Shown here: one piece after another, positions 9,931 through 62,973 of the stretch
Numbering within the stretch: position 1 is the stretch's first letter
Layout: the number at the start of each line of letters is the position of its first letter
NCBI GenBank assembly: GCA_963749405.1
Contig: CAVVMY010000015.1
Span: forward strand, 287-64,286
Length of the DNA stretch: 64,000 bases
Direction of reading: 5' to 3'
Source of the DNA: Candidatus Altiarchaeales archaeon
GTDB lineage: Archaea; Altiarchaeota; Altiarchaeia; IMC4; QMZM01
Made by a program: the position numbers and the translations under genes
Notes under the pieces: model-generated
The model's input: only the letters and a program-made list of their open reading frames with translations
The model's database searches: none
What the model was told of the DNA's origin: nothing

Positions 9931-10633
9931 ATGCCCAAATTAACGGTTGTGTTACCAGTTTACAACGAGCAGGCTGTTTTGAAATCAGCTGTATCAAAAA
10001 TTCATACGTATCTCTCAGATACCCCTTTCAAAAACTTTGAGATACTGATAGCCGATAATGGTTCCACGGATCGAACGCTGGAGACTGCCAAACTCGTTTC
10101 CCGGTCTTATGGCTCCGTGCGAATTCTGCATCTAAAAGAGAAAGGCCGAGGTCGCTCCTTGAAGGAGGCATGGTCGGTTTGTGATTCTGATATCGTGAGT
10201 TACATGGATATAGACATATCGACTGATTTGAGCGCATTTCCGGAATTAATCAAAGCGGTCGATGGCGGTTTCGATATTGCCATTGGCTCCCGATGGGTTC
10301 CAGGTGCGAGTGTGAACCGTTCAGTTGTCCGGGGCGTTCTTTCAGGGGGTTATAATCTTCTTCTCAGGATTGTCTTAGGAGTTGATTTTCGCGATGCACA
10401 GTGCGGCTTCAAAGCCATGAAGAAGAGCGTTTTTACCGAGCTTGCTTCAGAATCTGAAGAACAATGAATGGTTCTTTGATACCGAGCTTCTCGTTAAGGC
10501 CTCGCGTAAGGGCTGCAGGATTAAAGAGGTTCCTGTTAAGTGGGATGAGAGAAAAGACAGGAAGAGCAAGGTAGATATATTTGGAACAGTCTTCGATTAT
10601 CTTGTGCTGGTTATCAAACTGCGTTTTGAGTAA
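9931..10633 (+). pseudogene. GT2-family dolichyl/polyprenyl-phosphate sugar synthase (DPM1/GtrB-like), reading frame interrupted (+1) near 10450
   Basis: The N-terminal part reads VVLPVYNE...IADNGSTDRT...YMDIDIS...GSRW...AQCGFKAM. The conserved continuation NNEWFFDTELLVKA...EVPVKWDE is in the +1 frame (ORF 10442..10633). Confidence 0.7.
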
Positions 10634-11101
10634 TTACTTTTTTCCAAGCAGTTCTTTCAGGCTGTCCGGGTGAAGCGTTGATTCGTATTTGATTATGTCG
10701 TATATCGGGTATGTTTTCATCTGGCAGTTTTCGAGTTTGGCCAGGAATTCCTCTATTCCCTGGTTTTGTTTTTTCTCCGGGACTATGAAGTTTATGAGTA
10801 TTTTTCCGTCGAATGTGCGGTATACTTTTCTTGCTTCGTCGAGTTTGGCTATCCTTTTAGCTATTTCTTTTGATTCGGATGGGGGCGCGTCTACTATCAC
10901 GTATCCCATCTGTAGTCCGATTTCGTGCGGGTGCAGTATGGCTGAGAATTTTTTTATTACTCCTTTTTTCATCAGCCTTTCAGCTCTTGTGAATATGGTT
11001 GTGTGTGGTACTCCCAGGTTCTTACCCATTTGCCTGAAGCTCATCCGTGCGTCTTCTTGTAGGTATTTTATTATCTCTAAGTCAAGTTCGTCTATTTTCA
11101 T
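10634..11101 (-). CDS. Lrp/AsnC-family transcriptional regulator
   Basis: 155 aa. The N-terminal HTH reads LDLEIIKYLQEDARMSFRQMGKNLGVPHTTIFTRAERLMKKGVI, followed by a RAM-like C-terminal domain. Confidence 0.85.
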   Translation of the reverse strand: MKIDELDLEIIKYLQEDARMSFRQMGKNLGVPHTTIFTRAERLMKKGVIKKFSAILHPHEIGLQMGYVIVDAPPSESKEIAKRIAKLDEARKVYRTFDGKILINFIVPEKKQNQGIEEFLAKLENCQMKTYPIYDIIKYESTLHPDSLKELLGKK

Positions 11102-12750: not shown

Positions 12751-12795
12751 GGCTTTAATTATTACTACTACGTTAAATTATTTCAAAGAATCGGG

Positions 12796-17500: not shown

Positions 17501-17804
17501 ATGGTCAAGACAGTTAAAGTGCCTGATATCCGGGAGTTGGAGAAGGTTGTCGTTCCCGTTCTCAGGAGTAATGGTGTTGCTAAGGCCGGGTTTTTCGGTT
17601 CTTTCGTAAGGGGCGAAGCCACGAACAAGAGCGACGTTGACATACTTATCGAGTTTCGCGGCAGGAAGAGCCTGTTTGATTCTCTCTCATCTGGAGCTTG
17701 AGCTTGAGGATAAACTGGGAAGAAAGGTTGACGTGGTCACTTATGACTCTTTGCATCATTTGCTGAGGGACAGAATTTTAAAGGAGGAAGTCCGGATTCT
17801 ATGA
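17501..17804 (+). pseudogene. mntA: MntA-type nucleotidyltransferase (MNT) antitoxin, reading frame interrupted (+1) near 17680
   Basis: The catalytic motif GFFGSFVRGEATNKSDVDILIEF is present. The conserved continuation LELELEDKLGRKVDVVTYDSL...ILKEEVRIL is in the +1 frame and ends in an ATGA overlap with the HEPN gene. Confidence 0.7.
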
Positions 17805-18139
17805 AACGTGACGCTTCCGTGTTCCTGCAGCACATACTGGAAAGTATTGCCCGAATAGAAGAGCACACAGAAGGAATGTCTAAAGAAGATTTCATCGCAT
17901 CCGTTAAGACACAGGATGCAGTCATTAGGCGCCTTGAAATTCTTGGAGAGGCATCAAAGAACCTCCCTGCGAGCATTCGGGAAAAACATGCCGAGATTGC
18001 TTGGAGCGATATAATACGTACAAGGGATAAACTAAGTCACGGCTACTTTGGAGTAGACCTAGACCTTGCATGGGATATTGTTAAAAATGATTTGCCTATC
18101 CTAAAGGAAAAGGTCGAGAAGATTATCGGCGAGATTTAG
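17801..18139 (+). CDS. hepT: HepT-type HEPN (DUF86) toxin
   Basis: 112 aa. The R-x4-H motif is in IIRTRDKLSHGYFGVDLDLAWDIV. It is translationally coupled to the upstream MNT gene. Confidence 0.75.
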   Translation: MKRDASVFLQHILESIARIEEHTEGMSKEDFIASVKTQDAVIRRLEILGEASKNLPASIREKHAEIAWSDIIRTRDKLSHGYFGVDLDLAWDIVKNDLPILKEKVEKIIGEI

Positions 18140-18161
18140 GGCGGCTTATAACGCATTACTC

Positions 18162-18894
18162 TTTAGAAAGTTTTCCGCAAGAAACCTGCGGGCTTTAGCC
18201 CGCAGATGAATTGCGGCGTAATTCTGCAGGTGGGTGTCGTATTCTGTTTTGTTTTCCCTTGTTTCTTGCATGGGGAGAGGGCTTTTTATGGGTGTCGCGT
18301 TTTTGTAGACGCGCGCCTTCTCGCTACAAATTATTTATGGGTAGCGTGAGCTCTCGTCTCCGGAGTCGATGGAAATGGAGTCTGTTGAACTACACGCATT
18401 GTGTTGTGGGGGCTAACCTGCATCTGCAGTTTACGCCGGCGTATAGACGCGATATATTCTGTGATTCTGAGGTTATAACGCTGTGTCGGACGGTTTTTGG
18501 CGTCGTCGCCAAAGAACTCGGCGTAGAAATGGCGGCCTGCGAGTTCGGCCCGGACCATGTGCATTTGTTTCTGTCCGGGTGGAAGAATTACGCGATACCC
18601 GACCTCGTTCAGCGGCTGAAGGGTCGAAGCAGCCGTGAAATACGAGAAAAACTCTGGAACCGAATCAAGAGCAAATTGTGGGGCGACAAGTTCTGGAGTG
18701 GCGGATACTTCGCGGAAACCGTCGGACGAATAACCGCCGAAAACGCGAAGTATTACATAGAACGCCAACAAGGGAAGCACTGGAACAGCTATCCGCTACC
18801 GCTCACTGAAAACACAGACCCGCAACAGCTAAAAATAACACAGTTCTAGAACCCGAACAAGGACGCCCCGGCCTTCAGGCCGGGCGTAGTTCAC
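18162..18894 (+). mobile_element. IS200/IS605-family element (tnpA only), copy 1, 733 bp
   Basis: It matches 37104-37836 from end to end, differing only in a ~40-nt patch. The subterminal hairpins are CTGCGGGC/ttta/GCCCGCAG at 18186-18205 and CGCCCCGGCC/ttca/GGCCGGGCG at 18864-18886. Confidence 0.8.
18337..18849 (+). CDS. tnpA: IS200-type Y1 (HUH) transposase TnpA
   Basis: The core reads HLQFTPAYRR...GPDHVHLFLS (HUH)...LKGRSSREI...KFWSGGYFAETVG...AKYYIERQ (catalytic Tyr). The start is set at MGSVSS because that ATG stays in frame in both copies. The 212-aa ORF in the track begins inside the left-end hairpin region. Confidence 0.75.
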   Translation: MGSVSSRLRSRWKWSLLNYTHCVVGANLHLQFTPAYRRDIFCDSEVITLCRTVFGVVAKELGVEMAACEFGPDHVHLFLSGWKNYAIPDLVQRLKGRSSREIREKLWNRIKSKLWGDKFWSGGYFAETVGRITAENAKYYIERQQGKHWNSYPLPLTENTDPQQLKITQF

Positions 18895-20257: not shown

Positions 20258-21832
20258 ATGAAAGCTATCGTGACCACGGGAGGAGTCTTAAGCGGCCTCG
20301 GCAAAGGCGTTACTACGGCATCTATTGGAAGGATACTCAAGGACCGGGGCTATAACGTGATACCTGTCAAGATAGACGGATACGTCAACGTAGACCCGGG
20401 CACGATGAATCCCTACGAGCACGGGGAGGTGTATGTCCTTGACGACGGAAGCGAAACCGACCTGGATCTGGGCCACTATGAGCGGTTCCTCAACACAGAC
20501 CTTACAGGTGAATCGAACATGACGACCGGCAGCATCTATAAGACAGTGATAGAGAAGGAGCGCCGCGGAGACTACCTGGGAAAGACCGTGCAGATAATTC
20601 CCCATATAACAGACGAGATAAAGAAAAGGCTGCGGAAATTCAAAGACGCAGACGTCGTGCTAATCGAGGTCGGAGGAACAGTCGGGGACATGGAGAACAT
20701 GGTCTTCATCGAAGCCCTGAGGCAGCTTTCCAGAGAAGACGACAACAAGTTCCTCTTCGTCCACTTATCATATGTTCCGATAATACCCTCAGGAGAGCAG
20801 AAGACCAAGCCCACGCAGCACTCAGTCAAGGAGCTACTGAGCCTTGGGATACAGCCCAACATCATAATAGGCAGATGCGAAAAGCCCCTCACCGAAAAGA
20901 CAAGAGAAAAAATAGCCCTGTTCTGCGGCGTAAAACCAGAAGAAGTTTTAAGCGATCCGGACATAGAAGACATCTACGATCTGCCGATGATCTTCCGCAA
21001 TCAGGACATGCATAATATACTGGTGAAGAAATTGTGTTTGGAGAGTAAGCCGGTCTATGACTTCCAGTGGGAGGACAATGTCAAGAGAACGCATTCATGC
21101 AAAAAAGAAGCGGTTATCGGCATCTTCGGCAAATACACTGGTTTGGAGGATGCGTATCTCTCCATTAAGGAGTCGTTCAAGCATGCCGGTGCTGCCAACG
21201 GCTGTAAGGTGAAGCTTAAGTGGGTGGAGTCCGAGGATGTATCCCCCAAGGATTTCTCGTCCCTTGACGGCATGCTCGTTCCGGGAGGATTCGGTTCCCG
21301 GGGAGTCGAAGGAAAGATAACAGCCATAAAATACGCAAGGGAGCACAGTCTTCCTTTCCTGGGCATATGCTTTGGGATGCAGCTTGCGGTAGTGGAATAT
21401 GCAAGGAATGTCTGCAGCCTGAAGAATGCCAATACGACAGAAGTAGACCCAGATACAAAGTATCCAGTCATAGACTTCATGCCCGAGCAGAAAGGGATAT
21501 CCAAGAAGGGCGCAACCATGCGTTTGGGAGCCTACGAGTGCGACATAAGCAAAAATTCCATAGCTCATCGCCTGTATCAGCAGGACAAGGTATTCGAGCG
21601 CCATAGGCATCGCTGGGAAGTGAATCCCGAATACATAGGCGTGCTGGAGAAGAACGGTATGAAGTTCTCAGGCAAATACGCGTCGAAGAACCTTATGGAA
21701 ATAATGGAGCTTCCAAGCCATCCCTATTTCGTGGGCTGTCAGTTCCATCCAGAGTTCAAGAGCCGTCCCGAGAAGCCTGCGCCGCTGTTCGCAGGTCTTG
21801 TGGAGGCCGCGCTGAAAACCAGGAAAACTTGA
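20258..21832 (+). CDS. pyrG: CTP synthase
   Basis: 524 aa with N-terminal TTGGVLSGLGKGV. The GATase domain carries GICFGMQLAVVEYARN and HRHRWEVN. Confidence 0.95.
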   Translation: MKAIVTTGGVLSGLGKGVTTASIGRILKDRGYNVIPVKIDGYVNVDPGTMNPYEHGEVYVLDDGSETDLDLGHYERFLNTDLTGESNMTTGSIYKTVIEKERRGDYLGKTVQIIPHITDEIKKRLRKFKDADVVLIEVGGTVGDMENMVFIEALRQLSREDDNKFLFVHLSYVPIIPSGEQKTKPTQHSVKELLSLGIQPNIIIGRCEKPLTEKTREKIALFCGVKPEEVLSDPDIEDIYDLPMIFRNQDMHNILVKKLCLESKPVYDFQWEDNVKRTHSCKKEAVIGIFGKYTGLEDAYLSIKESFKHAGAANGCKVKLKWVESEDVSPKDFSSLDGMLVPGGFGSRGVEGKITAIKYAREHSLPFLGICFGMQLAVVEYARNVCSLKNANTTEVDPDTKYPVIDFMPEQKGISKKGATMRLGAYECDISKNSIAHRLYQQDKVFERHRHRWEVNPEYIGVLEKNGMKFSGKYASKNLMEIMELPSHPYFVGCQFHPEFKSRPEKPAPLFAGLVEAALKTRKT

Positions 21833-22144
21833 ACGTTATTCTGATTTATTAACCTAAAATACGGTATATACTATACATTCAAACCCATGAATATCTTCTA
21901 AATGCGCCTCTGATAAGTTGAAGACATGCAGACTGCAAGCCTTCTTTGGTTATAACCCCTTATCTTGGCCCCTATAGGCCGTAACCGGACCCATCGAAGA
22001 GAAACCAAGATACGTCGACCACAATTAAATGATTTATAAATAAGTACCCCCTTGTATTTCAGCCCTTTGCTTTTATACTAGGATATTGATAATATAATCC
22101 AACTAAAATCATAAAAAAATCACAAACCCACGACAACAAGTCAC

Positions 22145-23080
22145 GTGATCAAAATGAGAGAATGCAAGTCATGCGGTGGCACAAACTTTGTTTCCGACTA
22201 TGAGCGCGGAGAAGTTTACTGCAGGAAATGCGGTCTAGTCTTAGAGGATACTCTATTCGATTTCGGCCCTGAGTGGAGGGCATTTGACAGAGAGCAGCTG
22301 GATAAGAGGGCAAGAACAGGCGGCCTCTTGAGATATGCCAAACTCGGTAAAGGCCTCACCACAGAAATAGATAAATACGACAGGGACATAAAAGGTAAAG
22401 CGATCCCGGCCGAAAGAAAGGCGAAATTCTACAGGCTCAGGAAGTGGCAGACAAGGTCCAAGATGGCGACCTCTCTTCAGAGGAACCTGTCAAAAGCCCT
22501 CCCAGAGCTTGACCGAATGTGCTCATATCTGAAGATCCCTGGCAACGTCAAGGAAGAATGTGCCCTGCTTTACAGGAAATGCGCTGAGAAGGGCATAGTA
22601 AAGGGGCGTTCCATTGAAAGCATGGTTGCAGCTATCATATACCTCGTCACCAGGAAAAACAAGATACCTCGGACATTGGAGGAGCTGGAGACGGCATCAG
22701 GAGTGAAAAAGAAACTCATCAGCGGAAGCTTCAGAAAGATAGTCCACGAGATGGGGATAAAGATGCCTGTGACCACTGCTGCGGACTATGTTCCTTCGCT
22801 TGCGGTACAGCTTGAGGCTTCGGGCGAGACCATGGCCAAAGCAATCGAGCTTGTGGACAAAGCCAAGGAGACCAGCGTAACCACAGGCAAGGTGCCTATA
22901 AGCGTGGCAATTGCCGCACTGTATCTGGCAGCAGACATCACAAAGGATGCCCGGATGAAAAAAGACGTCAAATTCCCAGGCATATCCAAGAACACCATAC
23001 AGAGCAGATACGACGAACTGCTCCGGAAGGTGGCAGGCAAGGAAGCCATGCTTGCCGCACCCATGGCTGCTCCTGCTTAG
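22145..23080 (+). CDS. tfb: transcription initiation factor TFB (TFIIB)
   Basis: Zn ribbon CKSCGG...CRKCG is followed by a B-finger and two cyclin-like repeats. An internal ATG at 22154 is an alternative start. Confidence 0.9.
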   Translation: MIKMRECKSCGGTNFVSDYERGEVYCRKCGLVLEDTLFDFGPEWRAFDREQLDKRARTGGLLRYAKLGKGLTTEIDKYDRDIKGKAIPAERKAKFYRLRKWQTRSKMATSLQRNLSKALPELDRMCSYLKIPGNVKEECALLYRKCAEKGIVKGRSIESMVAAIIYLVTRKNKIPRTLEELETASGVKKKLISGSFRKIVHEMGIKMPVTTAADYVPSLAVQLEASGETMAKAIELVDKAKETSVTTGKVPISVAIAALYLAADITKDARMKKDVKFPGISKNTIQSRYDELLRKVAGKEAMLAAPMAAPA

Positions 23081-23121
23081 AAACCCACTGCGTATTTCTT
23101 TTTCTATTACTATATTACTGC

Positions 23122-24413: not shown

Positions 24414-24461
24414 CCTTCTCCTAAATTATTAATAGTTCAAAAGACTAATAACCAAAACATA

Positions 24462-51146: not shown

Positions 51147-52436
51147 ATGAAAGTAACAGATTACTTCGGAAAGGAGGTAAAGAACATAGAACGGGCTTCG
51201 CACGTAGGCATATACTCCACTGCAGACCATGAGACGATAACGACAGTTGCTTCCATAATCCGCGACGTCATAGATAAAAAGGACAAGGCACTGTTCGAAT
51301 ACACAAAAAAATTTGACAGGTTCGATCTAACATCCAGGAATATCCGGGTTACAAGAAATGAGATAGAATCGGCATATTCCCGGACAGACGATTCATTGAT
51401 AGCGGCGCTGGAGCACGCTCACAGGAACATAAAAAAGTTCCACAGTGAACAGTTCAGGATTATAAAGAAGCGTTGGGAAATTGAAACAGAAGCAGGCGTA
51501 TTGATAGCAGAAAGAACGAATGCTCTGGAAAGCATCGGCGCATACATACCGGGCGGAAGGGCTACGTACCCTTCAACAGTTTTGATGGCCTGCACGCCGG
51601 CCAAGGTCGCAGGAGTTGAAAGAATCGTGGTAACATCTCCTCCCCCCATATCAGACGCCATACTCGCAGCATGCCGTATCTGTGAAGTGGATGAAGTCTA
51701 CCGCGTAGGCGGAGCCCAGGCGGTTGCGGCTCTTGCAGCCGGAACGGAAAGCATCGAAAAAGTCGATAAAATAGTTGGCCCCGGCAACAAATACGTAAAT
51801 ACTGCAAAGCTTTCAGTATATGGGATGGTGGATATAGACATGCCGGCAGGCCCGTCGGAGATCATGATAATAGCGGACCGAAAAGCGAGTCCAAAGCTCG
51901 TCGCCGCGGATATCCTGGCGCAGGCGGAGCACGACCCCGACGCTAGATGCGTTCTTATCACCGACACAAGAGAGAAAGAAGAGGAGGTAAGAAAGGAGCT
52001 TGAATCACAGAAAACGCATCTTAAGAGAATATCCATCATACAAAAAAGCCTGGAGAAAAACTTTCTCGTATGCAGGACCCGGGGAATAGACGAATCCATA
52101 GACACTGCCAACATGCTTGCGCCTGAACACTTGGAGATTTTCACGGAAAACGCAGATACCGTAGCTCAGAAAATAAGGAATGCGGGAACGATATTTGTCG
52201 GAGAATACTCTCCGGTTTCTGCCGGGGACTATGCAACCGGAAGCAATCACGTACTACCTACCGGGATGGCGGCGAGGTTTTCCTCAAGTCTTGGCGTCAG
52301 GGACTTTTTGAAAAATTACACCACCCAGAAAATATCAAGGCAAGGTTTGCTTGCACTGAGAAAAACAATAGAAACATTGGCATCGGCCGAGTCTCTGGAC
52401 GCGCATGCTCAATCAGTGCGTAAAAGATTTGAATAG
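51147..52436 (+). CDS. hisD: histidinol dehydrogenase
   Basis: About 429 aa from MKVTDYF. Supporting motifs are GAYIPGGRA.YPS, IVGPGNKYV, AGPSEI, QAEHD and GDY..G.NHVLPT. The track start (GTG 51138) lies inside the repeat. Confidence 0.9.
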   Translation: MKVTDYFGKEVKNIERASHVGIYSTADHETITTVASIIRDVIDKKDKALFEYTKKFDRFDLTSRNIRVTRNEIESAYSRTDDSLIAALEHAHRNIKKFHSEQFRIIKKRWEIETEAGVLIAERTNALESIGAYIPGGRATYPSTVLMACTPAKVAGVERIVVTSPPPISDAILAACRICEVDEVYRVGGAQAVAALAAGTESIEKVDKIVGPGNKYVNTAKLSVYGMVDIDMPAGPSEIMIIADRKASPKLVAADILAQAEHDPDARCVLITDTREKEEEVRKELESQKTHLKRISIIQKSLEKNFLVCRTRGIDESIDTANMLAPEHLEIFTENADTVAQKIRNAGTIFVGEYSPVSAGDYATGSNHVLPTGMAARFSSSLGVRDFLKNYTTQKISRQGLLALRKTIETLASAESLDAHAQSVRKRFE

Positions 52437-52533
52437 TATACTAACCCTATGAGGTCACAGTCTGCTTTTTAAAGCCGTATACGTATGTATAGTAACACTA
52501 TAAAGGTAATATAAAACGAGGTGAAAAAAGAAA

Positions 52534-52710
52534 ATGGCTGATTTGCTGGTCGTAAAGGCCAAGATAAAGGATGTGAAGGGACTGGAAGACATGAACGTTG
52601 CAGGAGATTTCGCGGAAGCCCTGAGCGCAAAGGTCGAGACCCTCATAAAGGATGCTGCTGCAAGAGCGGCTGCCAACGGCAGAAAAACCGTGCAGTCAAA
52701 AGACCTCTAA
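52534..52710 (+). CDS. DUF1931-type small histone-fold protein
   Basis: This 58-aa ORF is below the track cutoff: MADLLVVKAKIKDVKGLEDMNVAGDFAEALSAKVETLIKDAAARAAANGRKTVQSKDL. The ending ...A...A..NGRKTV...D resembles the histone-fold helix 3 signature. An A-rich, GAGGTG-containing leader precedes it. Confidence 0.55.
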   Translation: MADLLVVKAKIKDVKGLEDMNVAGDFAEALSAKVETLIKDAAARAAANGRKTVQSKDL

Positions 52711-52792
52711 GAGGCTTGATAGCTGCCCATTAATCTTTTTCTTTTTTTAATCCAATTCTTTTTCAATTCTAATAATCATACATCAATGTAAA

Positions 52793-53380
52793 ATGATCGG
52801 CATAGTCTCAGACTCCCACGATAATCTACCGGCCATAAGGCAGGCCGTGGAATTCATGAACTCACAGGGCGTGTCTATGGTCCTGCATGCTGGCGATTAT
52901 GTCGCTCCCTTCACGGTAAGAGAATTCAAGAATTTGAAATCCCCTTTGTATGGAGTCTTCGGAAACAACGACGGAGAAAGAAAAGGCCTGATGCGCGCGT
53001 TTTCCGAGATGGGTGCCGAACTTAAAGAGTTTGTAGAGATCACGCACGAAGGCAGGAAGATAGCATTGTATCATGGAACGATAACGGAATTTATCTCGGC
53101 TCTCATATCCGGCGGAGAATACGACGCCGTCGTCAGGGGGCACACTCACCAGCCCGAAGTGAAAAAAGAAGGAAATACCTTGGTTATCAATCCCGGAGAA
53201 CTATGCGGGTATCTGACCGGGAAAAAGACTGTTTGCTTGCTTGACCTTTCCACAATGGAAGCAACCATTCACGAAATAGGCGAAAAACAGGAAGTCACGC
53301 CTGAGAACAAACAGGAAACTACGCAGGCTCCTTCCCCGGAAACTGAAAAAGAAAAAAGACAAGATGATACTGTCAGCTGA
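52793..53380 (+). CDS. MJ0936/YfcE-family metallophosphoesterase with acidic/Thr-rich C-terminal tail
   Basis: 195 aa with motifs GIVSDSHDN, HAGD, FGNNDGE and RGHTHQP. Confidence 0.75.
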   Translation: MIGIVSDSHDNLPAIRQAVEFMNSQGVSMVLHAGDYVAPFTVREFKNLKSPLYGVFGNNDGERKGLMRAFSEMGAELKEFVEITHEGRKIALYHGTITEFISALISGGEYDAVVRGHTHQPEVKKEGNTLVINPGELCGYLTGKKTVCLLDLSTMEATIHEIGEKQEVTPENKQETTQAPSPETEKEKRQDDTVS

Positions 53381-53852
53381 GAAAATAAAGAGTCTCGTAT
53401 CTGAGGAAAAACTCATAGAGGGTTTCAGCGAAAAATCCCTTAACGGCGCAGGATACGACCTGCGCGTCGGCCGGTTCTACAAGATCCGGGGAGATGCCTG
53501 CCTTGGAATAGAAAATCGTGTTCTCCCGGAGGCTGATGAAATAAAATCAGAGGAAATAACCCTGAAACCTGACGAGTATCTGCTCATAGAGACGCAAGAG
53601 CGGGTGCATATGCCAAAGAACATAATGGCCCGCATACTCCCCCGCTCCACACTCTTCCGCGCAGGATGCGCTCTGATAACCGCGGTCGTAGACCCCGGCT
53701 ACTACGGGACACTCACAATGGGCTTAAAAAACCTCTCAGGAGCAAGTTTGCGGCTGGAGAAAGGAGCAAGGATCGGTCAGATAGTCTTCGAGGAAGTGTC
53801 AGGCGAGGCCACGTCATATAACGGCCGCTATCAGGGGGGGAAGGTCGTATAG
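53364..53852 (+). CDS. dcd: dCTP deaminase / dUTPase-family protein
   Basis: 162 aa with motifs GAGYDLRVG, ...G.AL.TAVVDPGY.G.LT and GARIGQIVF. Confidence 0.8.
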   Translation: MILSAEKIKSLVSEEKLIEGFSEKSLNGAGYDLRVGRFYKIRGDACLGIENRVLPEADEIKSEEITLKPDEYLLIETQERVHMPKNIMARILPRSTLFRAGCALITAVVDPGYYGTLTMGLKNLSGASLRLEKGARIGQIVFEEVSGEATSYNGRYQGGKVV

Positions 53853-53869
53853 GACCATACGCTTATTTA

Positions 53870-54406
53870 ATGTCAAGTTCTTATGTTTTAACAATAGAAA
53901 TGGACTATAGAAACCTTTTTTTGGTTTTGGCAATCTCATCTTTGGTATTCTTGTGCGGATGCACCAGCAAAGTATGTCCTGAGCCGAATTCGACCGTTGG
54001 AGACAAATGCTGTCTTGACGCTGACGGAAACGGTATATGCGATGTGGACGAGACCACCACAACTACCACCACAACTACTACAACAACCACTACGACCACC
54101 ACGACCTCGACCACTAAGGCTACGACCACCACGACAACAACGACCTCCTCGACCACCAGCACCACGTCAGTGAAAGACCTATGCGGCGAGCCCTGCTGCA
54201 TAAAGGAATACCTATCCGGTGAATGCGGCATGTACGGAAAAATCGATTTGGTGTGCATCAACGCGACTGCGCTTTACGAATGCGACAACAACGCCACGCT
54301 GAGATGCGCCCAAGGATATGCCTGCAAGATGAGCACGACCGGAGGGCACTGTGTAAGTTCGGGGGAAAAGACCGTTCTGAACACAAACAATGACGGGTTA
54401 AGGTAA
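53870..54406 (+). CDS. lipobox-bearing secreted Cys-rich protein with long poly-Thr linker
   Basis: The probable start is MDYRNLF (ATG 53900). LVFLCGC resembles a lipobox. A run of about 45 residues is almost entirely Thr/Ser. The flanking modules are Cys-rich. Confidence 0.5.
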   Translation: MSSSYVLTIEMDYRNLFLVLAISSLVFLCGCTSKVCPEPNSTVGDKCCLDADGNGICDVDETTTTTTTTTTTTTTTTTTSTTKATTTTTTTTSSTTSTTSVKDLCGEPCCIKEYLSGECGMYGKIDLVCINATALYECDNNATLRCAQGYACKMSTTGGHCVSSGEKTVLNTNNDGLR

Positions 54407-54490
54407 TCTTTTTTTATTAATTTCATTAATAAAACCGTATTTTTCTATTGTTTTTTTTGAGATTTAATCGTTTAATCTACTAATTACTAT

Positions 54491-55372
54491 ATGAAAGACC
54501 GCATCGCCACTCTTAGACGCCTCCTCGAAGACTCGGTAAAGAGGTCCTGCGCCAAAGAAGTAGGAGCAGTCTACTCCTCCGGGATCGACTCGGCTATTGT
54601 CACTTTTTTTGCGTCAAGGTACTGCGACGTAACCGCTTACACGGTAGGTGCTAAGGGCTCGGAAGACGTCAGATTCTCAAGAAAGTCGCAGCAGGATGCG
54701 GATTTCAAGATAAGGATCATCGAGATAGACGAATCCGACGTGGAGAAAATACTGCCGGATCTTGTGAAAATAGTCGGAGTTCCGGATTCTCTGAAGGTCT
54801 CAGTCGGCGTCCCGTTGTATTTTGCTGCGCGGGAAGCAAAAAAGGACAGGCTTTCTGTCATGCTGTCCGGGCAGGGAGGAGACGAACTGTTCGGAGGATA
54901 TAACCGTTATCTTGCTCATGCGGCAAAAGGCGATCACGCAAGCCTCAGGGCTGCGATGCAAAAAGACGTGGACACCGCCTACATAGACAACCTCGATCGG
55001 GACATGGCCATATTCAGGGCCTTCGGTATTGACCTGCGTTTTCCCTACATGGACGAAGCGTTCGGCAAATACGCGTCAAGCCTCCCTTCGAAGTTGAAGA
55101 TATACGAGCTTGTGGAAGGCATGGAAGAGGAATTCGCATGCGTGGACGTGGTGGACAAAAAAAGATTCATACGCAAGTATCTGCTGAGGCATCTGGCGGC
55201 GGACATCGGCGTTCCGGGATACATCCTTGACCGCAAGAAGAAAGCAGCCCAATACGGTTCAGAGGCCGAGAAGCTTATAGACAGGATAGCCAGGAAAAAC
55301 GGATACAAGAAGAAAGCCGAAGAAGCAAAAAGAAAGGACTACATGCGGATGTATTTGGAATCGCTCGTTTAG
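54491..55372 (+). CDS. asparagine-synthase-like PP-loop ATPase (synthetase domain only, no glutaminase domain)
   Basis: 293 aa with motifs VGAVYSSGIDSAIV (SGGxDS variant) and LSGQGGDELFGGYNRY. Confidence 0.55.
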   Translation: MKDRIATLRRLLEDSVKRSCAKEVGAVYSSGIDSAIVTFFASRYCDVTAYTVGAKGSEDVRFSRKSQQDADFKIRIIEIDESDVEKILPDLVKIVGVPDSLKVSVGVPLYFAAREAKKDRLSVMLSGQGGDELFGGYNRYLAHAAKGDHASLRAAMQKDVDTAYIDNLDRDMAIFRAFGIDLRFPYMDEAFGKYASSLPSKLKIYELVEGMEEEFACVDVVDKKRFIRKYLLRHLAADIGVPGYILDRKKKAAQYGSEAEKLIDRIARKNGYKKKAEEAKRKDYMRMYLESLV

Positions 55373-55393
55373 TTCTGAGCAGCAAAACCATTT

Positions 55394-55676
55394 CTACTTT
55401 TTACAAATATCCTGTGCAAGGTTCGTGTGGCCGAAATGGACTATCAGGTCCAGGCCAAGAAGCGCTGCCTCTTTTTCTTTGGTGTCGCAGGCACCATATA
55501 CCGGGTCGACGAAGATGACGCACTGGGTCCCTGTTCGTTCCTCTATCTCTTTGGCGACTTCGACTGCATATACTTTCAGGCCTTCCGGAAATTGCAGGCC
55601 TACACATTTTGCTTTTTTTCTTTTTATTTCCTTTATTATGCGATTCTGTTTCGAAAACGTAATCTGATTTTTCCAT
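55394..55676 (-). pseudogene. dph2: remnant of diphthamide synthesis gene dph2 (N-terminal ~90 codons only, with a +1 frame break)
   Basis: The minus strand reads MEKSDYVFETE-[shift]-IIKEIKRKKAKCVGLQFPEGLKVYAVEVAKEIEERTGTQCVIFVDPVYGACDTKEKEAALLGLDLIVHFGHTNL..stop. This matches only the first quarter of archaeal Dph2. Confidence 0.6.
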
Positions 55677-55678
55677 GA

Positions 55679-57437
55679 CTATGTTTCTTCGTCTGCATCG
55701 GCTCTTGCTGCTCTTTTCAGTTCCCTCATCTCTCTGAGGACTGATTTTTCGTCTTCTGTCAGGTCTTCTGCTTTGGTCTTGGCCATGTCCTCTATTGTTA
55801 TGTGGACATAGAGGGTGTCTCCTTCGTTTATCTGTCTTCCGACAGTCACGTTCTCTATGGATATTGCGGCCTTGTCCGGAGCCTGCGCGCTTTTTACGTT
55901 CTCTTTGTCTTTCTGCATCTCTTTTAAGCGGCCGATGACTTTCCCGTCTGCTCTCATGAGCATCGCTCCGGTCCGCAGGGTGCCTGCCTGTATTTCTACG
56001 CCTACGATAGCCGGTTTGCTCTGGCGGAATACGCACTTGGGCAGGAGGCGTATCTTTGCCGGAGAGGCTATTTTGCCTTCTCGTTCGGCTTTCTCTTTTT
56101 CCTTTTCTTTTTTCACCCAGTCTTCGTAGTTCTCTATCAGCTTGTATATTATATTGCTTTCGAATATCTTTATCTTTTTGTCTTCTGCGAGTTTCTTTGC
56201 CTCTGGGAGTGTTTCAGTGTTGAAGGCGATTATGACTCCGGCATATCTGTCCTGTTCTTTTACTGATACGGACTCTATTATGTCTGCGTTGGCGACTTTG
56301 CCGATTGTGGCCTTCCGTATGGCTATTTTTTTGTCGGTGAACAGCTTTACAAGCGCTTCAAGCGAGCCTATGGTATCTGTCTTTATGGTAACCCCGATGT
56401 TGTCTGTGTTTATCTCTATGTTATCTATCTCCTTTCTCACGGCGCCGGCAAGCTCCGGCCCTCCGACATAGACGGGTGCTCCGGAGAGTGCTTTTTCAAG
56501 GTTCGGCGCAGATATCTTTACCCCTGATGCGGCATATACGCTGTTTACGTTCAGGAATTTTTCCCGGGGATCGCGCATCTCGTCGAGTGGTTTAGGCCGC
56601 AGCAATGCCCTTACTGTGGTCACTATCGGCTCTTTTGCTCCTACTACTATCTGGTCGTTTTTCCGTATTACTCCGTCGTATATTATGACGTCGATTGTGG
56701 TTCCGAGGCCTCTTTCTTCTTTTACTTCCAGTATCGTGCCTTTTGCCGGGGAGTTCATCTCCACTGACAGTTGCTCTGCGAGGTATTGCTGTGCCAAACC
56801 GATTAGTATCATTAATAGTTCGGGCACATTCTCTCCTTTTTTTGCGGATATGGGAACGATGGCAACCTCTTTTCTGAAGTCTGTTATCTGCGTGAATAGT
56901 TGTGAGTCGAATCCCTGCTCTGACAGTCTGCCCGACTAGTTTGTAGAATTTCGTGTAGAATTCTTCCTTCGTCCTTTCCAGTTGTTCGTCTATTTTGACG
57001 CCGGCTCTCCATCCGGATATTGCGTCTATTTTATTTGCCGCAACTACGTAGGGCGTTTTGTATTGCTTGAGTATCTGTATCGCTTCTATGCTCTGGGGCA
57101 TAAGGCCTTCGTTTATGTCCACCACGAGTATGGCCAGGTCGGAGACGCTTCCTCCGCGCCTGCGAAGGTTGGTGAATGCTGCGTGACCCGGTGTGTCTAT
57201 GAAAAGGAGGCCGCGTACGTTTATCTTTGCCCCCATGGCGTTCAGCAATGGACCGCATATCCTCTTCACGGCATCGAACGGGACGTCGGTTGCGCCTATG
57301 TGCTGCGTTATGCCGCCGGCCTCCCTTGAAGCAACGGAACTGCTCCTGATCCAGTCAAGAAGCGTGGTCTTCCCGTGGTCCACGTGCCCCAGCACCGAGA
57401 TGATAGGCTCCCGTGTGTGTCTCAGTTCCTCTGTCAT
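55679..57437 (-). CDS. infB: translation initiation factor aIF5B (IF2-type GTPase), reading frame interrupted (+1) near 56927
   Basis: The G domain carries [17 protein letters not shown] and NKID. The expected continuation [11 protein letters not shown]...[18 protein letters not shown]... is in the +1 frame and joins ORF 55679..56827. Confidence 0.9.
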
Positions 57438-57469
57438 GGTATAAGAAATAGATTACAGGCTTAATAGTT

Positions 57470-58309
57470 TTACAGGTTTGCTGAGACGTTCTTGAAATGG
57501 GTTTTTGCGATATAGGGCAGCAGATGCTTTGGTATGTTTTTTGGTTTGACGCCTCTGATACTTATTTTGTATTCTGCTTCCAGTCTGTCTACTTCCTTTT
57601 CGAAAAGATATTTTGCCAGGATGCTTGCTGCGGCAACAGAGGTCTCGGATTCGCCGCCTGTCTTCTGCACGACCACCAGGTTCTTTTTTTCAAGGTCCCT
57701 CAGCTTTTCCTCGGTCTTCCTGTAGTCGAACATGTCGATTACTATCTTTGCATTGCCGTATTCTATTTCTGATAGGACTTTTTTTATGAGGTCTGTGTGT
57801 ATCTGCGCCAGTAAGTCGTTTAGGTTCTTTCCGGATTTTGCATATTCACTGTAGATTTTGTTGTACTCTTCAGGCGCAAGGATGCAGACCTCTTTTATTT
57901 TTTTTCCGTCTGTCAGTTCTTTTCCCATTCTCAGAAGCGCCTTTTTGCCTATTTTTTTGCTGTCCCTCACCCCTTTTCTGCGCAGGGCAGGTATCTCTTT
58001 TGGTTTCAGGGCCACGCAGGCGATGGCAAGTGGGCCGTACCATTCGCCTTTTCCAGCTTCGTCGGTTCCTATCACGTAGTCGTATTTGTCGTCCTCGGTG
58101 AGAAAAGTCCTCAGCACTTCCTTGACTGCGTCGCCTTCCCTGTAAGCGACGTTGCCGCCTTTGTATCCGACGATGAATATCCCGGTTCTCCGGTCGTCGA
58201 AGCGGTATAGCTCATACTGGCTCTTTATACCTGTTTCTTTTACATTATTCTCTGTAAGAATCCTTCGGAGTTCTTTTAGCTCTTCAGGGGAAAGAAATAT
58301 GGATTTCAT
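57470..58309 (-). CDS. type-2 RNase H with N-terminal extension, RNase HIII-like
   Basis: 279 aa. A ~75-aa N-terminal domain precedes IGTDEAGKGEWYGPLAIA. Further matches are RDSKK, VIDMFD, GGESETSVAAASILAKYLF (Glu rather than Asp before the VAAASI helix, as in HIII) and KTHFKNV at the C-terminus. Confidence 0.6.
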   Translation of the reverse strand: MKSIFLSPEELKELRRILTENNVKETGIKSQYELYRFDDRRTGIFIVGYKGGNVAYREGDAVKEVLRTFLTEDDKYDYVIGTDEAGKGEWYGPLAIACVALKPKEIPALRRKGVRDSKKIGKKALLRMGKELTDGKKIKEVCILAPEEYNKIYSEYAKSGKNLNDLLAQIHTDLIKKVLSEIEYGNAKIVIDMFDYRKTEEKLRDLEKKNLVVVQKTGGESETSVAAASILAKYLFEKEVDRLEAEYKISIRGVKPKNIPKHLLPYIAKTHFKNVSANL

Positions 58310-58310
58310 T

Positions 58311-58865
58311 TCAGCATCTGACAGTGTCGATCACTTTTTCGAGTATCAGGTTTGCGTCTTCGTGGCTTTTGACGTCGCCTATGAGCACTTTTCCTGATTT
58401 GAAGACCATAGCTGTTCCCTTGGTTTTGGGTAGCGCGTATGTAAGGAAGACTGCGGGGCACTTTTTTGGGTCGTATGCTGCGTTTTCTTTTTCTGATAGT
58501 TTTTCCAGGTCTATGACGATTTCCGGGAGGTAGTCGCGTATGTTGCCTGTGGCCAGCACGTTTTCTATCTCTATCTCGGTGTCGGCTCTGAGCGTTATCC
58601 TGTTTCCCAGTTCTTTGAGTTTTCTTTTCAGTTCCCAGAAAGCCGATTCTATCTCCTCGCTGTTCTTTGCGCCGTTTAGGAATACTATGCCTGAGGAGAA
58701 GATCATCATCTTTATGTTGTGCTTTGGGTGGGTGTATATGTAGGCTGGGAGGTTTTTTCCTTCTTCCAGGCCTTCTCTTTGGGCGCGTCTTTCGTCTATG
58801 TTGAGGCTTTGTTTGTAGTCTATCCTGCAGAATATGTTCTCTATCCGCGACTTTGCTTTCAACAC
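58311..58865 (-). CDS. tbp: TATA-box binding protein (divergent)
   Basis: 184 aa with two repeats. Repeat 1 reads IENIFCRIDY...MMIFSSGIVFLNGAKNSEE. Repeat 2 reads IENVLATGNI...AMVFKSGKVLIGDVKSHED. The start is non-ATG (TTG/GTG). Confidence 0.7.
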   Translation of the reverse strand: MLKAKSRIENIFCRIDYKQSLNIDERRAQREGLEEGKNLPAYIYTHPKHNIKMMIFSSGIVFLNGAKNSEEIESAFWELKRKLKELGNRITLRADTEIEIENVLATGNIRDYLPEIVIDLEKLSEKENAAYDPKKCPAVFLTYALPKTKGTAMVFKSGKVLIGDVKSHEDANLILEKVIDTVRC

Positions 58866-58996
58866 GGTTAATAATTATGCTCTGCGCTTAAAATGCTTTC
58901 AGGCTGAATCCTATTTTCCGCAAAAAATGGCGGCTGTTCTTTTTTTATAGTAATACTCCTTTATTTAATAATATCCCTAATGCTCTGCTTAGTCTG

Positions 58997-59446
58997 ATGA
59001 AAACCATAGGCGAAATAACCGCAAAGTACCATGACCGATCTGATTTGATCGATCTTTTGTCCGAGGTGCAGGAGGAGTTTGGTTATCTGTCTGAGGCTAA
59101 TATGAGGAGTATCGAGCAGTCTCTTGGCATCCCTTTGGTGGAGATATACGGCGTTGCTACATTCTATGCTTCTTTTAGGCTGCAGCCTGTGGGCAGGCAT
59201 ATTATCCGTGTCTGCAAGGGAACTGCGTGCCATGTGAAGAAGGCGGATATGATAGAGGGTGTGCTTGACGACCTATTGGGGATCCGGGACAAGCAGACGA
59301 CTGAAGACGGCCTGTTCACTTTGGATTGCGTTAATTGCATTGGGGCATGTGCAAAAGCCCCTAACATCATGATAGATGATAAGGTCTACGGCGAGCTGAC
59401 GCGGGAGAAAGTGGAGAAGATAATAAAGGAATTTCCAAAAGAATGA
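58997..59446 (+). CDS. hydC: NuoE-like [2Fe-2S] subunit of bifurcating hydrogenase (HydC)
   Basis: 149 aa with motifs GVATFYASF, VCKGTACH and CVNCIGACAKAP (the four Cys of the thioredoxin-like 2Fe-2S site). Confidence 0.8.
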   Translation: MKTIGEITAKYHDRSDLIDLLSEVQEEFGYLSEANMRSIEQSLGIPLVEIYGVATFYASFRLQPVGRHIIRVCKGTACHVKKADMIEGVLDDLLGIRDKQTTEDGLFTLDCVNCIGACAKAPNIMIDDKVYGELTREKVEKIIKEFPKE

Positions 59447-61233
59447 AAAAACTTTCTGAGTACGTAGATGTCGAGAAAGGCGTAAAAGAGCTTTCAGGGG
59501 ACCGCGTGACAGTTGGCGTGGCCACGTGCGGCATCTCCGCCGGGGCTGGTGAAACTCTCAAGTCTTTGCAGGATGCGAATTTAGGTGTTCTCGTTGATCC
59601 TGTGGGCTGTTCTGGTGCGTGCTTTAATGAGCCTATAGTTACCGTTAAGCAGGGGGGTGTCTATTCGATATATTCGCATGTCACGAAGGATAAGGCGCAG
59701 CTGATAACTGATGCGGTAAAAGCAGGGAGGATATGCGATGAGCTTTTCACTGCGCATGAACTCTCTGAGATGGATTATTATAAGAAGCAGCAGCGTCTTG
59801 TCATGGAGAACTGCGGCCTCATAAATCCTCTTAGCATAGAGCAGTATGCCGCATGCGGCGGCTTCAAAGGCCTTTTGGAGGCGCTTCTTCTGGAGCCTAA
59901 GGAAGTAGTCGATGTGATGAAGGATTCCCGTTTGCGTGGAAGAGGCGGTGCAGGCTTTCCCACAGGGATGAAATGGAGTTTTGTCCTTGGAAAAACAGGC
60001 AAGAAATATCTTATATGCAACGCGGACGAGGGCGATCCCGGGGCTTTCATGAACCGCATCATGCTGGAAAGCGATCCCTTTAAGGTTCTTGAGGGTGTGA
60101 TGATTGCGGCGTATGCTATTGGCGCGGATGAGGCTTTTATCTATATGCGGCTGGAGCGGCCTCTTTCTATTAGAATGATGCAGAAGGCTATTTCTCTTCT
60201 TGGGGAGAAGCATCTTTTGGGCGAGAACATACTGGGCAGAGAGGGATACAATCTTAGGATACGTGTCAAAAAGGGGGCTGGTGCATTCGTTTGCGGGGAA
60301 GAGACCGCGCTTATGAATTCCATAATGGGTCAGAGAGGTTATCCTAGGCCGAGGCCTCCGTTTCCTGCCGAGAAGGGTTTGTGGGACAGGCCGACTATCA
60401 TTAACAACGTTGATACGATGGCCAATGTTGCCACTGTGATGAAGATAGGCCTTGACAGATATAAGAAGATAGGGACTGAGAAGAGCCGCGGCACAAAGAC
60501 TGTCTGCCTCACAGGGAACGTGAAAAGGCCAGGCGTGATAGAAGTCCCTTTTGGTATATCACTTAAGGAGATCGTCTACGACATCGGCGGTGGCACTCCT
60601 GAGGGTACTAAATTTAAGGCTGTGCAGATGGGTGGCCCTGCCGGTGGTTGTATTCCTGTTGAGTTGTTGGGTTTGCCTCTTGATTATGAGCCTTTGACTG
60701 CTGCCGGGGCCATAATGGGTTCTGGCGGGGTTGTGGTCTTGACGGATCGGGACTGCATTGTGGATGTGGCCAGATATTTTATGTCTTTCACCCAGAAAGA
60801 GTCCTGCGGTAAATGTACTCCCTGCCGTGAAGGCACGCTGCGTCTTCTGGAAATACTTGAGAGGCTGACGGATGGAAGCGGTAAGAGAGAGGATATAGAG
60901 CTTGCTAATCGGCTTGCCATTTTCATAAGGGACTCTGCGCTGTGCGGCCTTGGGCAGAATGCGCCTAATCCTGTTCTTTCCACTATGAAGTATTTCATGG
61001 ATGAATACGTCCAGCATGCGGAGCAGAAGACGTGTGCTGCGGGCGTATGCAAGAACATGATAACATATCTCATAACCGATAGGTGCGTCGGCTGCGGCAA
61101 CTGCGCAAGGATATGCCCGGTCGCAGCCATATCAGGTAAATTGAAGACGAAGTATGTGATAGACTCCAAGAAATGCATAAAATGCGGCGAATGCATGCGT
61201 AACTGCGCATTCAAGGCTATAGAGAAAAAATGA
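59443..61233 (+). CDS. hydB: NuoF-like flavin/NAD(H)-binding Fe-S subunit (HydB)
   Basis: 596 aa. An N-terminal thioredoxin-like 2Fe-2S module (TCGISAG...CSGACFNEP) comes first. The FMN/NADH site follows (SRLRGRGGAGFPTGMKW, CNADEGDPGAF). Then come ESCGKCTPCREG and two ferredoxin CxxCxxCxxxCP motifs at the C-terminus. Confidence 0.85.
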   Translation: MKKLSEYVDVEKGVKELSGDRVTVGVATCGISAGAGETLKSLQDANLGVLVDPVGCSGACFNEPIVTVKQGGVYSIYSHVTKDKAQLITDAVKAGRICDELFTAHELSEMDYYKKQQRLVMENCGLINPLSIEQYAACGGFKGLLEALLLEPKEVVDVMKDSRLRGRGGAGFPTGMKWSFVLGKTGKKYLICNADEGDPGAFMNRIMLESDPFKVLEGVMIAAYAIGADEAFIYMRLERPLSIRMMQKAISLLGEKHLLGENILGREGYNLRIRVKKGAGAFVCGEETALMNSIMGQRGYPRPRPPFPAEKGLWDRPTIINNVDTMANVATVMKIGLDRYKKIGTEKSRGTKTVCLTGNVKRPGVIEVPFGISLKEIVYDIGGGTPEGTKFKAVQMGGPAGGCIPVELLGLPLDYEPLTAAGAIMGSGGVVVLTDRDCIVDVARYFMSFTQKESCGKCTPCREGTLRLLEILERLTDGSGKREDIELANRLAIFIRDSALCGLGQNAPNPVLSTMKYFMDEYVQHAEQKTCAAGVCKNMITYLITDRCVGCGNCARICPVAAISGKLKTKYVIDSKKCIKCGECMRNCAFKAIEKK

Positions 61234-62973
61234 AAGTTTCGGTGAGCCTCAACGGGGAATCAGTGGAAGCAGACGACGGGGAGATGATAATAGACGTCGC
61301 CCGAAGGAATGGGATAGACATCCCCCATCTGTGCTGGAACGTCCTCTTCGAAAGGATCGGCGCCTGCCGCATATGCGTAGTTGAGGTCGATGGCAATCCA
61401 AAGCTTGTCGCCTCGTGTTCTACGCCCGTGAAGCAGGGCATGATCATAAGGACGCATACTCCGCGGGTTTTTGAGGCCCGTAGGATGAACCTTGAGTTGC
61501 TTCTCGCCAACCATGATCTGAATTGTACCACATGCGCCAAGAACCTTAAGTGCCGGCTGCAGGAATATGCTCATGATTTCATGATACAAGAGATACCGTT
61601 CGCAGGCAAAAGACGGCAGGAAGAGCCTGATCGTTCCAGTCCCTCCATTGTGAGGGACAATAACAAGTGCATTCTCTGCGAGCAGTGCATACAGGCCTGC
61701 AACAAGATACAGACTGTTTACGCTATCGGCCTGCAGAACCGGGGTTTCAAGACGCGCGTTGCACCTCCCTTGAAGATGAACATGAATGAGAGTGCTTGCG
61801 TTAACTGCGGGCAGTGCGTGGTAGCCTGTCCGACGGGCGCCCTGACGGAAAAGAGCAGCATAAAAGAAGTAGTAAACGCTCTCAACAGTGGCAAATATCT
61901 TATTGCCCAGACTGCGCCGTCTATCAGGGCGACGCTGGGTGAGTGTTTCGGGCTTCCGCCGGGGGTTCCGGTGACCGGGCAGATGGTTTCCGCTCTGAGA
62001 GACTTGGGCTTTCAGAAGGTCTTTGACACGAACTTTGCAGCAGACATAACCATAATCGAGGAGGGAACTGAATTCATAAAGAGATTCAAGGAGAACCGAA
62101 GCCTTCCAATGATAACCACATGCTGTCCCGCATGGATAAAGTTCGCCGAGCAATTCTACTACCAAGAGCTCCACCACATGTCCTCATGCAGAAGCCCGCA
62201 GGCGATACTTGCATCTCTGGTAAAGACATACTATGCAGAAAAGATAGGAAAAGACCCAAAAGACATAGTCCTCATCGACATAATGCCCTGCACTGCCAAA
62301 AAATTCGAGATACTGCGGCCTGAATTCAAAGGAGAAGCAGACTACGTACTCACAACAGTGGAGCTGGCAAAACTCATAAACCAATACAGCCTGGACTTTC
62401 TGAATCTACCGCCTTCGGCTTTTGATTCGCCGATGGGAGAATCAACAGGCGCAGCAGACATATTCGGCCAAACAGGCGGAGTAATGGAAGCAGCACTAAG
62501 ATCAGTCGCAGACCTCATGAGCGGCCAAGACCTCCAAAGCGTTGATTACACCAATGTCCGGGGCATGGCGACAATGAAGGAAGCAGAAGTAGACATAGGA
62601 GGAAACAAAATAAAGATATGCATAGTACACACGCTGGGCGAAGCAAGAAAACTCATGGACCAGATAAGAGCAGGCACAAGCCCATACCACTTCATAGAGA
62701 TCATGGCCTGCTACGGCGGATGCGTCGGCGGAGGAGGACAGCCCGGGCCGCACAGAAAAGAGATACTGGAGAAACGCGCCCGCGCCCTGCGCAAAGAAGA
62801 CTCGGAAAAAAAGAATCAGGAAATCCCATCAGAACCCGGATGTCCTGCGGCTGTACAAGGAATACCTCGGAGAATTCGGAGGGGAAAAAGCGCATAAGCT
62901 GCTGCATACTACTTACACGAACAGGTGCATAATAAAGGAGTGCGGCAATAGTCCTATCCTCCTATTTATTTAA
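61230..62973 (+). CDS. hydA: [FeFe]-hydrogenase catalytic subunit HydA (M3-type, group A3-like), C-terminal tail in +1 frame after 62814
   Basis: The N-terminus has a 2Fe-2S ferredoxin fold and F-cluster Cys motifs. The H-cluster motifs are ITTCCPAW, IMPCTAKKFE and EIMACYGGCVGGGGQP. The conserved tail RKSHQNPDVLRLYKEYLGEFGGEKAHKLLHTTY is read only after a +1 shift at the A-run/GAATC (62805-62817). Confidence 0.85.

Follow-up and report, generated by a model that had tools for sequence, protein, structure and literature searches.

The 64,000-nucleotide stretch of Candidatus Altiarchaeales DNA analysed here (contig CAVVMY010000015.1 of assembly GCA_963749405.1, positions 287 to 64,286; G+C ~46%; hereafter the window) contains eight conserved genes whose reading frames are interrupted, one of them twice. 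They encode a family-2 glycosyltransferase (GT2), MntA, a cupin-type glucose-6-phosphate isomerase (PGI), aRF1 (the gene with two breaks), a large surface protein, a Dph2-like open reading frame (ORF), aIF5B and a [FeFe]-hydrogenase-like subunit (hydA). The question raised by this locus is whether the nine breaks belong to the organism, as mutations or as sites of recoding, or only to the deposited sequence. On the evidence presented below, we consider it very probable that all nine are single-base insertion errors in the deposited consensus and that the genes of the organism are intact.

Nine frame breaks share one direction and are absent from relatives

A first-pass annotation, made from the sequence alone, had assigned a short sequence string to each break and had read every break as requiring the same correction. 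All nine strings are present in the window where it had placed them, and three-frame translation showed that at 9/9 breaks the conserved continuation lies one base downstream in frame, leaving one base surplus each (two-sided binomial p = 0.004 for a uniform direction). The reading frame moves from 1 to 2 in GT2, from 2 to 0 in mntA, from 0 to 1 in PGI, from 0 to 1 and then from 1 to 2 in aRF1, from 1 to 2 in the surface protein gene and from 0 to 1 in hydA; in the two minus-strand genes, the Dph2-like ORF and aIF5B, it moves from 2 to 1.

We compared the window with related contigs, using for nucleotide alignment L001 (~81% identity) and L002 (~78%), both collinear with window 14.6-37 kb, and L014, collinear with 49.4-63.9 kb. 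When translated ORFs of L001-L004, L006 and L010 (first interval) and of L014 (second interval) were matched to the window, only PGI, aRF1 (at both breaks), the surface protein, aIF5B and hydA were hit in several frames, and the shift was always +1. The nucleotide alignments showed a 1-nt gap in the relative at 24891 in PGI, at 26958-26962 and 27414-27421 in aRF1, at 31592-31598 in the surface protein gene, at 56924-56929 in aIF5B and at 62803-62817 in hydA. Neither these translated comparisons nor Pfam scans of the window ORFs in 0.5-14, 14-37 and 47.5-51 kb revealed any break that needs an added base, or any other lesion; the tightly packed small ORFs at 38-47 kb were assessed by ORF sizes and coding-frame scores instead of a Pfam scan.

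In about 30 related Altiarchaeota contigs, the same genes are intact, have the same length and align across the junctions without gaps. None of these orthologues carries the breaks. The closest relative, sample ERZ1426824 (compared at the protein level; 97.8% identity in aRF1 and 95% in aIF5B), encodes intact MntA, glucose-6-phosphate isomerase, aRF1, surface protein, aIF5B and Dph2-like proteins of 100, 236, 360, 1032, 585 and 93 aa, respectively. Protein identity to relatives on both sides of the breaks is 89-95% for aRF1, aIF5B and hydA, and 70-83% for PGI and the surface protein. We found no in-frame stops near the breaks in these comparisons, and identity downstream is as high as upstream.

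A loss of two bases, instead of the gain of one, was considered for each break and ruled out because its repair would add a residue absent from every relative; after removal of one base, the proteins have the length of their relatives and align without gaps. A suspected tenth break at 22767-22814 proved to be a run of N in L001, and the TFB gene of the window is intact there.

Independent assemblies contain GATC at two of the sites

Four Logan contigs (L032, L034, L035 and L036), assembled independently from the public run ERR11596056, represent the same population. Over the ~15.0 kb of the window that they cover together, they differ from it by a single mismatch and a single indel. L035 differs from window 20795-24467 by 1 mismatch (24208) and 0 gaps, L032 and L036 equal window 56928-62131 and 62836-63982 with 0 differences each, and the sole difference between L034 and window 51951-56925 is one 1-nt gap, located at the break in the Dph2-like ORF (the dph2 site). 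There the Logan sequence is TTATGCGA-TCTGTTTCG and the window sequence TTATGCGATTCTGTTTCG; at the core of the site, the window has GCGATTCTG and the independent contig GCGATCTG (GCGA-TCTG in L034). Moreover, L034 encodes an intact 93-aa Diphthamide_syn ORF, and the exact repaired protein is present in the protein collection (P0404), with Logan as its source.

For mntA, we looked in the collection for exact copies of the proteins that the five possible single-base repairs would give. The FDLSH variant (100 aa) was the only one present, encoded on a 5473-bp Logan contig, and the four other junction variants were absent. Since the FDLSH variant arises solely by removal of T from GATTC, the intact MntA shows that the underlying sequence is GATC. 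Together, these results directly show that at dph2 and mntA, two of the five GANTC sites, the real sequence is GATC and the window carries a spurious T. The first-pass annotation had favoured an insertion artefact in the consensus, and both the GATC of the ERR11596056 assembly at dph2 and the intact MntA in the Logan collection support it. Its further claim that deleting the central base regenerates GATC at five sites is verified at these two, while the other three depend on relatives. Its argument that these cannot all be dead genes agrees with the intact relatives, the single type of lesion and the conserved flanks.

The Logan contigs are also informative at aIF5B. Each of L034 and L032 has one end precisely at the break in aIF5B (56925-56928), the first base of L032 being A where the window has T at 56927. 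Other Logan contig ends are motif-free and resemble low-coverage breaks. A double contig end within 2 nt of the site is hardly due to chance and suggests that the reads disagree there. If L034 and L032 abut, the coding strand of aIF5B would read CAG TTG, with the gene in frame.

The mismatch at 24208 is the sole substitution in the ~15 kb (window A, Logan C on the plus strand) and changes residue 66 of GINS from R in Logan to L in the window; either true variation or an error in the consensus could explain it.

The breaks are associated with two short motifs

Eight of the nine breaks lie on GA(A/T)TC or AG(A/T)CTG, the exception being PGI. Conserved residues pin the junctions to 7-15 nt. The probability that an interval of the pinned size contains a GAWTC or AGWCT centre is 0.037, and 8/9 then corresponds to p = 3e-11 when the motifs are taken as pre-specified. 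Because the motifs had been selected after the sites were seen, we also carried out a permutation that allowed free motif choice, in which random sets of nine intervals could each select the best pair of reverse-complement-closed 5-mer classes. None of the 5000 random sets reached 8. The motif association is real.

Removal of a surplus A or T at the motif centre restores the frame at all eight motif sites (8/9 breaks), and at the two confirmed ones the base is shown to be T. On the strand that reads GATTC, the next base is T at 5/5 sites, and the AGACT sites are followed by G at 3/3 (background 27.5% in both cases). The earlier statement that the breaks fall mostly on GANTC or AGACTG is therefore upheld for 8/9, with enrichment; it fails for PGI, an A4 run without GATC or AGCT, and is ambiguous for hydA, where an A7 run competes.

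Resolution of the individual sites

The GT2 gene (9931-10633, plus strand; 233 aa when repaired) has its surplus base in GAATC at 10450-10454. Eleven homologues (228-267 aa) align without gaps across the junction and favour S-D-L, that is, TCA GAT CTG; neither variant of the repaired protein is present in the protein collection. In mntA (17501-17804, plus strand), the surplus T lies in GATTC at 17678-17682, the true sequence being GATC, and the repaired protein aligns without gaps to PDB 1WOT.

The PGI gene (24462-25185, plus strand) has a surplus A in ATAAAAT at 24888-24894, with no GATC or AGCT. L001 shows a 1-nt gap here, the junction falls at 24890/24892 by tblastn, and the window reads ATAAAAT where the relative has AT-CAAT; repaired PGI is absent from the protein collection.

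The aRF1 gene (26571-27655, plus strand; 360 aa when repaired) has its first surplus base in GATTC at 26958-26962, where both L001 and L002 show a 1-nt gap; the window reads GAAGATTCTG, and the relatives read GAAGAA-CTG and GAAGAAT-TG. The second lies in GAGACTG at 27414-27421, opposite GAG-CTT in L001 and GA-ACTA in L002. All related loci (29/29) encode aRF1 in a single frame with no gap at either junction, and PLE(E/D/N)LI and FMKELV are conserved. Because FMKELV is nearly invariant in relatives, the surplus base at the second site must be the A or G of GAGACTG and cannot come from the AAA run. Repaired aRF1 matched 13 genome loci, almost all of which bear the label Candidatus Altiarchaeales, Altiarchaeia or Altiarchaeota; the top matches had 94% and 90% protein identity, and the genome and metagenome collections yielded no DNA of the same species. 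Other metagenome assemblies also contain a related aRF1 that is divided, its two parts having 238 and 122 aa (P0364 and P0365; JGI contigs of up to 5974 bp); the division falls at a position that differs from the two breaks of the window.

The gene for the large surface protein (29581-32656, plus strand; 1024 aa when repaired) has its surplus base in CAGACTG at 31592-31598, where L002 shows a 1-nt gap. The relative reads CAG-CAG against CAGACTG in the window, and tblastn with the ORFs of L001 and L002 puts the junction at 31598-31602.

On the minus strand, aIF5B (55679-57437; 585 aa when repaired) has its surplus base at 56924-56929, where the coding strand reads CAGACTG and L014, with a 1-nt gap, CAA-TTG. 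On the plus strand, the window has CAGTCTG and the relative CAAT-TG; many database homologues are full length, mostly 573-608 aa. The adjoining Dph2-like ORF (55394-55676, minus strand, 93 aa) has its surplus base at 55642-55646, with GATTC on the plus strand in place of the true GATC. The first-pass annotation had called this gene a dph2 remnant, a description we replace, as the 93-aa ORF is conserved in relatives. It has a Diphthamide_syn hit and occupies the same place downstream of aIF5B in L014, ERZ1426824 and the Logan contig L034. A normal Dph2 has ~330 aa, so the ORF is either a conserved mini-protein or a gene fragment. L014 carries an insertion between these two genes (9470-10114), namely a PIN-domain gene and, ahead of it, a 79-aa ORF that has no Pfam hit; this pair is missing from the window at that place.

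The hydA gene (61230-62973, plus strand; 580 aa when repaired) has a surplus A in GGAAAAAAAGAATC at 62803-62817, where L014 shows a 1-nt gap; the window reads AAAAAAAGAATCAGG and the relative TAAGAAGATAC-G. The protein of L014 reads S-D-K-K-I-R-K-S-H. Taking an A out of GAATC yields KKIRK, which is close to DKKIRK in the relative, and taking it out of the A7 run yields KRIRK; the break cannot be assigned to one or the other. One end of the Logan contig L036 lies 20 nt to the right of this site.

Beyond the two confirmed sites, the error seen at dph2 and mntA probably also accounts for the remaining three GA(A/T)TC breaks, with the ambiguity just described for hydA. For the three AG(A/T)CTG breaks, an error of this type at an AGCT-like site (AGCTG or AACTG) is probable. 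Removal of the G instead of the A would give GAACTG or CAACTG, with the same residues at aRF1 and aIF5B and a resemblance to GAACTA in L002 and CAATTG in L014; the relatives fit AACTG as well as AGCTG. The PGI break is an ordinary error in the length of an A run, as the hydA break possibly is.

The error is sporadic

The first-pass annotation had described the insertion as systematic. This does not hold, since most occurrences of the motifs are unaffected: the window contains 135 GATC, 185 AGCT, 97 AGCTG and 12 CAGCTG sites that are intact. We estimate that only about 3-4% of GATC and AGCTG sites are affected. A longer motif that is always hit was ruled out by the intact copies of GATCTG (14), AGATCTG (3), CAGATCTG (1), CAGCTG (12) and GAGCTG (22). 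Thus, the error is associated with the motifs yet sporadic, and it probably depends on local coverage and wider context.

A possible role of base modification

How would such errors arise? The contig probably derives from native-DNA long reads. Reads of each strand would gain a base beside a modified base in short palindromes, and the consensus would then retain a 5-base site with A or T at its centre. We infer the long-read origin only from two 733-bp copies of an insertion sequence (IS) that are spanned within one 71.7-kb contig. These IS200-family (Y1 transposase) copies, at 18162-18894 (copy A) and 37104-37836 (copy B), are 99.5% identical and lie 19 kb apart. They differ at two spots only (18346-18361 and 18369-18387), each comprising an indel and a substitution, and the indels cancel in length. 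At 18378-18384 on the plus strand, copy A reads GAG[T]CTG and copy B GGG-CTG; because of its extra base, copy A has an ATG GAA ATG start that is not in frame with the Y1 transposase. This may be a tenth case; the difference between the copies is consistent with an insertion error.

Methylation is a plausible cause, its only hint in the sequence being the depletion of GATC, which occurs 135 times in the window against 216 expected (z = -7). Among the relatives, the nearest ones (L001, L002 and L014) show only mild depletion, with z between -0.9 and -2.1, and the more distant L030 a clear one (z = -4.7). CTAG and GTAC are likewise low in the window. Were base modification responsible, the pattern would point to methylation specific for GATC and AGCT in the organism, with which the GATC depletion is consistent.

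Nanopore consensus errors arise predominantly at methylation motifs if the training data did not include the modification (Wick et al. 2019, PMC6591954); most methylated sites give no error (PMC12392509). With CycloneSEQ nanopore sequencing, native reads have more insertions and fewer deletions than amplified DNA, and ONT (Oxford Nanopore Technologies) R10 profiles are more variable (bioRxiv 10.64898/2026.01.14.699587). The errors known at Dcm CCWGG and Dam GATC sites (PMC6591954; bioRxiv 10.64898/2026.01.14.699587) resemble those of the window in affecting short palindromic motifs of methyltransferase type, in being kept in the consensus and in being absent from independent data. For the window, both the modification and the platform are presumptive. 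We found no literature report of insertions at the centre of GATC or AGCT palindromes.

Several observations weigh against this explanation of the breaks. For seven of the nine sites (all but dph2 and mntA), the evidence comes from relatives alone, and no Logan contig spans any AGACTG site, GT2, PGI or either aRF1 site. Where the Logan contigs can be compared with the window, the two are identical at 37 GATC and 39 AGCT sites, including three GATCTG, so that most sites are correct. AGCT is not depleted in the window (z = -1.75), and no DNA methyltransferase gene was detected among 30 window ORFs scanned against Pfam. Finally, reported motif errors are mainly substitutions and not insertions (PMC12392509; bioRxiv 10.64898/2026.01.14.699587): the published cases mostly exchange A with G or C with T and may affect a large share of sites, whereas those described here are 1-nt A/T insertions at ~3-4% of sites.

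Alternative explanations

Homopolymer-length errors of long-read, 454 and Ion Torrent sequencing are a familiar source of single-base indels that split conserved genes. PGI with its A4 run, and possibly hydA with its A7 run, fit this description, and GATC to GATTC is formally a length error from 1 to 2. However, the AG(A)CTG cases extend no homopolymer, the longest runs of the window (8-10 nt) are not at the breaks, and all nine changes are insertions. Long-read homopolymer consensus errors are usually deletions in long runs. More generally, the breaks could be ordinary random or homopolymer indels of a low-coverage assembly, with no site-specific cause and a motif pattern that is a post-hoc coincidence. 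The PGI and hydA runs would then need no special account, nor would the many untouched GATC and AGCT sites, and the motifs were indeed picked after the sites had been seen. We nevertheless find this unlikely, given that the permutation allowed exactly such free choice of motif class and that both sites resolved by independent data are exactly GATC to GATTC. In addition, conserved residues exclude the neighbouring homopolymers at the second aRF1 site and at aIF5B, and the sole indel in the 15 kb checked falls on a claimed site. Alternatively, the surplus bases could be real +1 mutations at GATC and AGCT in a strain or subpopulation, for example scars of blunt cuts (GA^TC, AG^CT) with an untemplated A or T, in which case the genes would be recent pseudogenes. 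The restoration of frame by a central A/T in 8/9 is what untemplated A addition at a blunt cut would give, the GATC depletion suggests restriction pressure, and the ends of the Logan contigs exactly at the aIF5B site could reflect read heterogeneity. But with aRF1 broken twice and aIF5B, PGI and the hydrogenase once each, all within 64 kb, the cell would die or be severely impaired, no stops, deletions or other lesions accompany them, and both flanks are still under purifying selection. In the Logan data, moreover, both dph2 and mntA have GATC and an uninterrupted ORF, with the contig unbroken there. Signs of genome decay (mixed lesions, both shift directions, relaxed downstream constraint) were not seen, as 9/9 breaks are single-base +1 changes. 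Real mutations are thus quite improbable. That extra A/T bases within GATC and AGCT are real in part of the population, for example as repaired blunt-cut scars or as a state of heavy or partial modification read differently by different platforms, we judge very unlikely; if true, the sites would point to restriction or repair at work in an uncultivated lineage of Altiarchaeota.

The first-pass annotation had also kept in view that the extra bases are real and are compensated at the RNA or ribosome level, which could involve +1 ribosomal frameshifting, quadruplet decoding, transcriptional slippage or RNA editing. The uniform +1 direction and the essential nature of some affected genes speak for it, and the A7 run in hydA could permit some transcriptional slippage. 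As in programmed +1 frameshifting (bacterial prfB, antizyme, Ty1/Ty3, Euplotes), the continuation lies one base downstream of the end of the zero frame, and a release-factor gene is among those affected. Unlike in those systems, there is no conserved shift site and no slippery, hungry or rare codon common to the breaks: the codons before the shift are GAT, GAG, CAG, GAA, AAG and ATA, none of which re-pairs in the +1 frame. The breaks are conserved in no orthologue, even at 97.8% protein identity, and at two of the nine sites (dph2 and mntA) the extra base is absent from independent DNA data. Compensation in expression is therefore effectively refuted, and we consider it extremely improbable.

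Consequences for annotation

With insertion errors in the consensus as the favoured explanation, the deposited contig mis-annotates at least eight genes as fragments, namely GT2, mntA, PGI, aRF1, the 1024-aa surface protein, the Dph2-like ORF, aIF5B and the [FeFe]-hydrogenase-like subunit. These eight genes should be treated as intact. Fragments from the window have already entered public protein collections (P0052, P0121 and P0403), where the window's gene fragments belong to a 71,712-bp contig with NCBI and ENA as sources. Anyone who used this assembly to conclude that genes of this DPANN lineage have been lost, recoded or turned into pseudogenes would be misled. The signature itself, in which one A or T is inserted into the middle of GATC, and probably of AGCT-type sites too, occurs at low penetrance in a consensus that otherwise matches (one substitution in ~15 kb). 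It may be useful when polishing long-read metagenome-assembled genomes of organisms with modifications outside the training data of the basecaller.

Gene content of the window

The genes in 1-20 kb include an IS110 transposase, PheRS-alpha, a HerA-like ATPase, the MntA/HepT pair and an IS200-family copy. The IS110-family transposase (1185-2216) is intact and is followed by three large ORFs without a Pfam match (813, 633 and 581 aa; span 2614-9396). The MntA/HepT toxin-antitoxin pair (17501-18139) adjoins IS copy A. Between 20 and 37 kb, the window encodes, among others, CTP synthase, TFB, a CBS-domain protein, GINS, the cupin PGI, aRF1, the 1024-aa surface protein and RPA, and between 47 and 63 kb, fibrillarin, TBP, RNase HII, aIF5B and the trio of NuoE, NuoF and the [FeFe]-hydrogenase-like protein. 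No RNA genes that could serve as an internal control lie within the window, and exact-protein look-ups of a 519-aa ORF, PheRS-beta, an M54 peptidase and an AsnC regulator were unsuccessful. The PheRS beta-chain gene (25737-26564) encodes only 275 aa, with B5 and catalytic-like domains, and lacks the N-terminal half. This short form is not an artefact of the window, because the closest relative has a PheRS beta chain of the identical 275-aa length.

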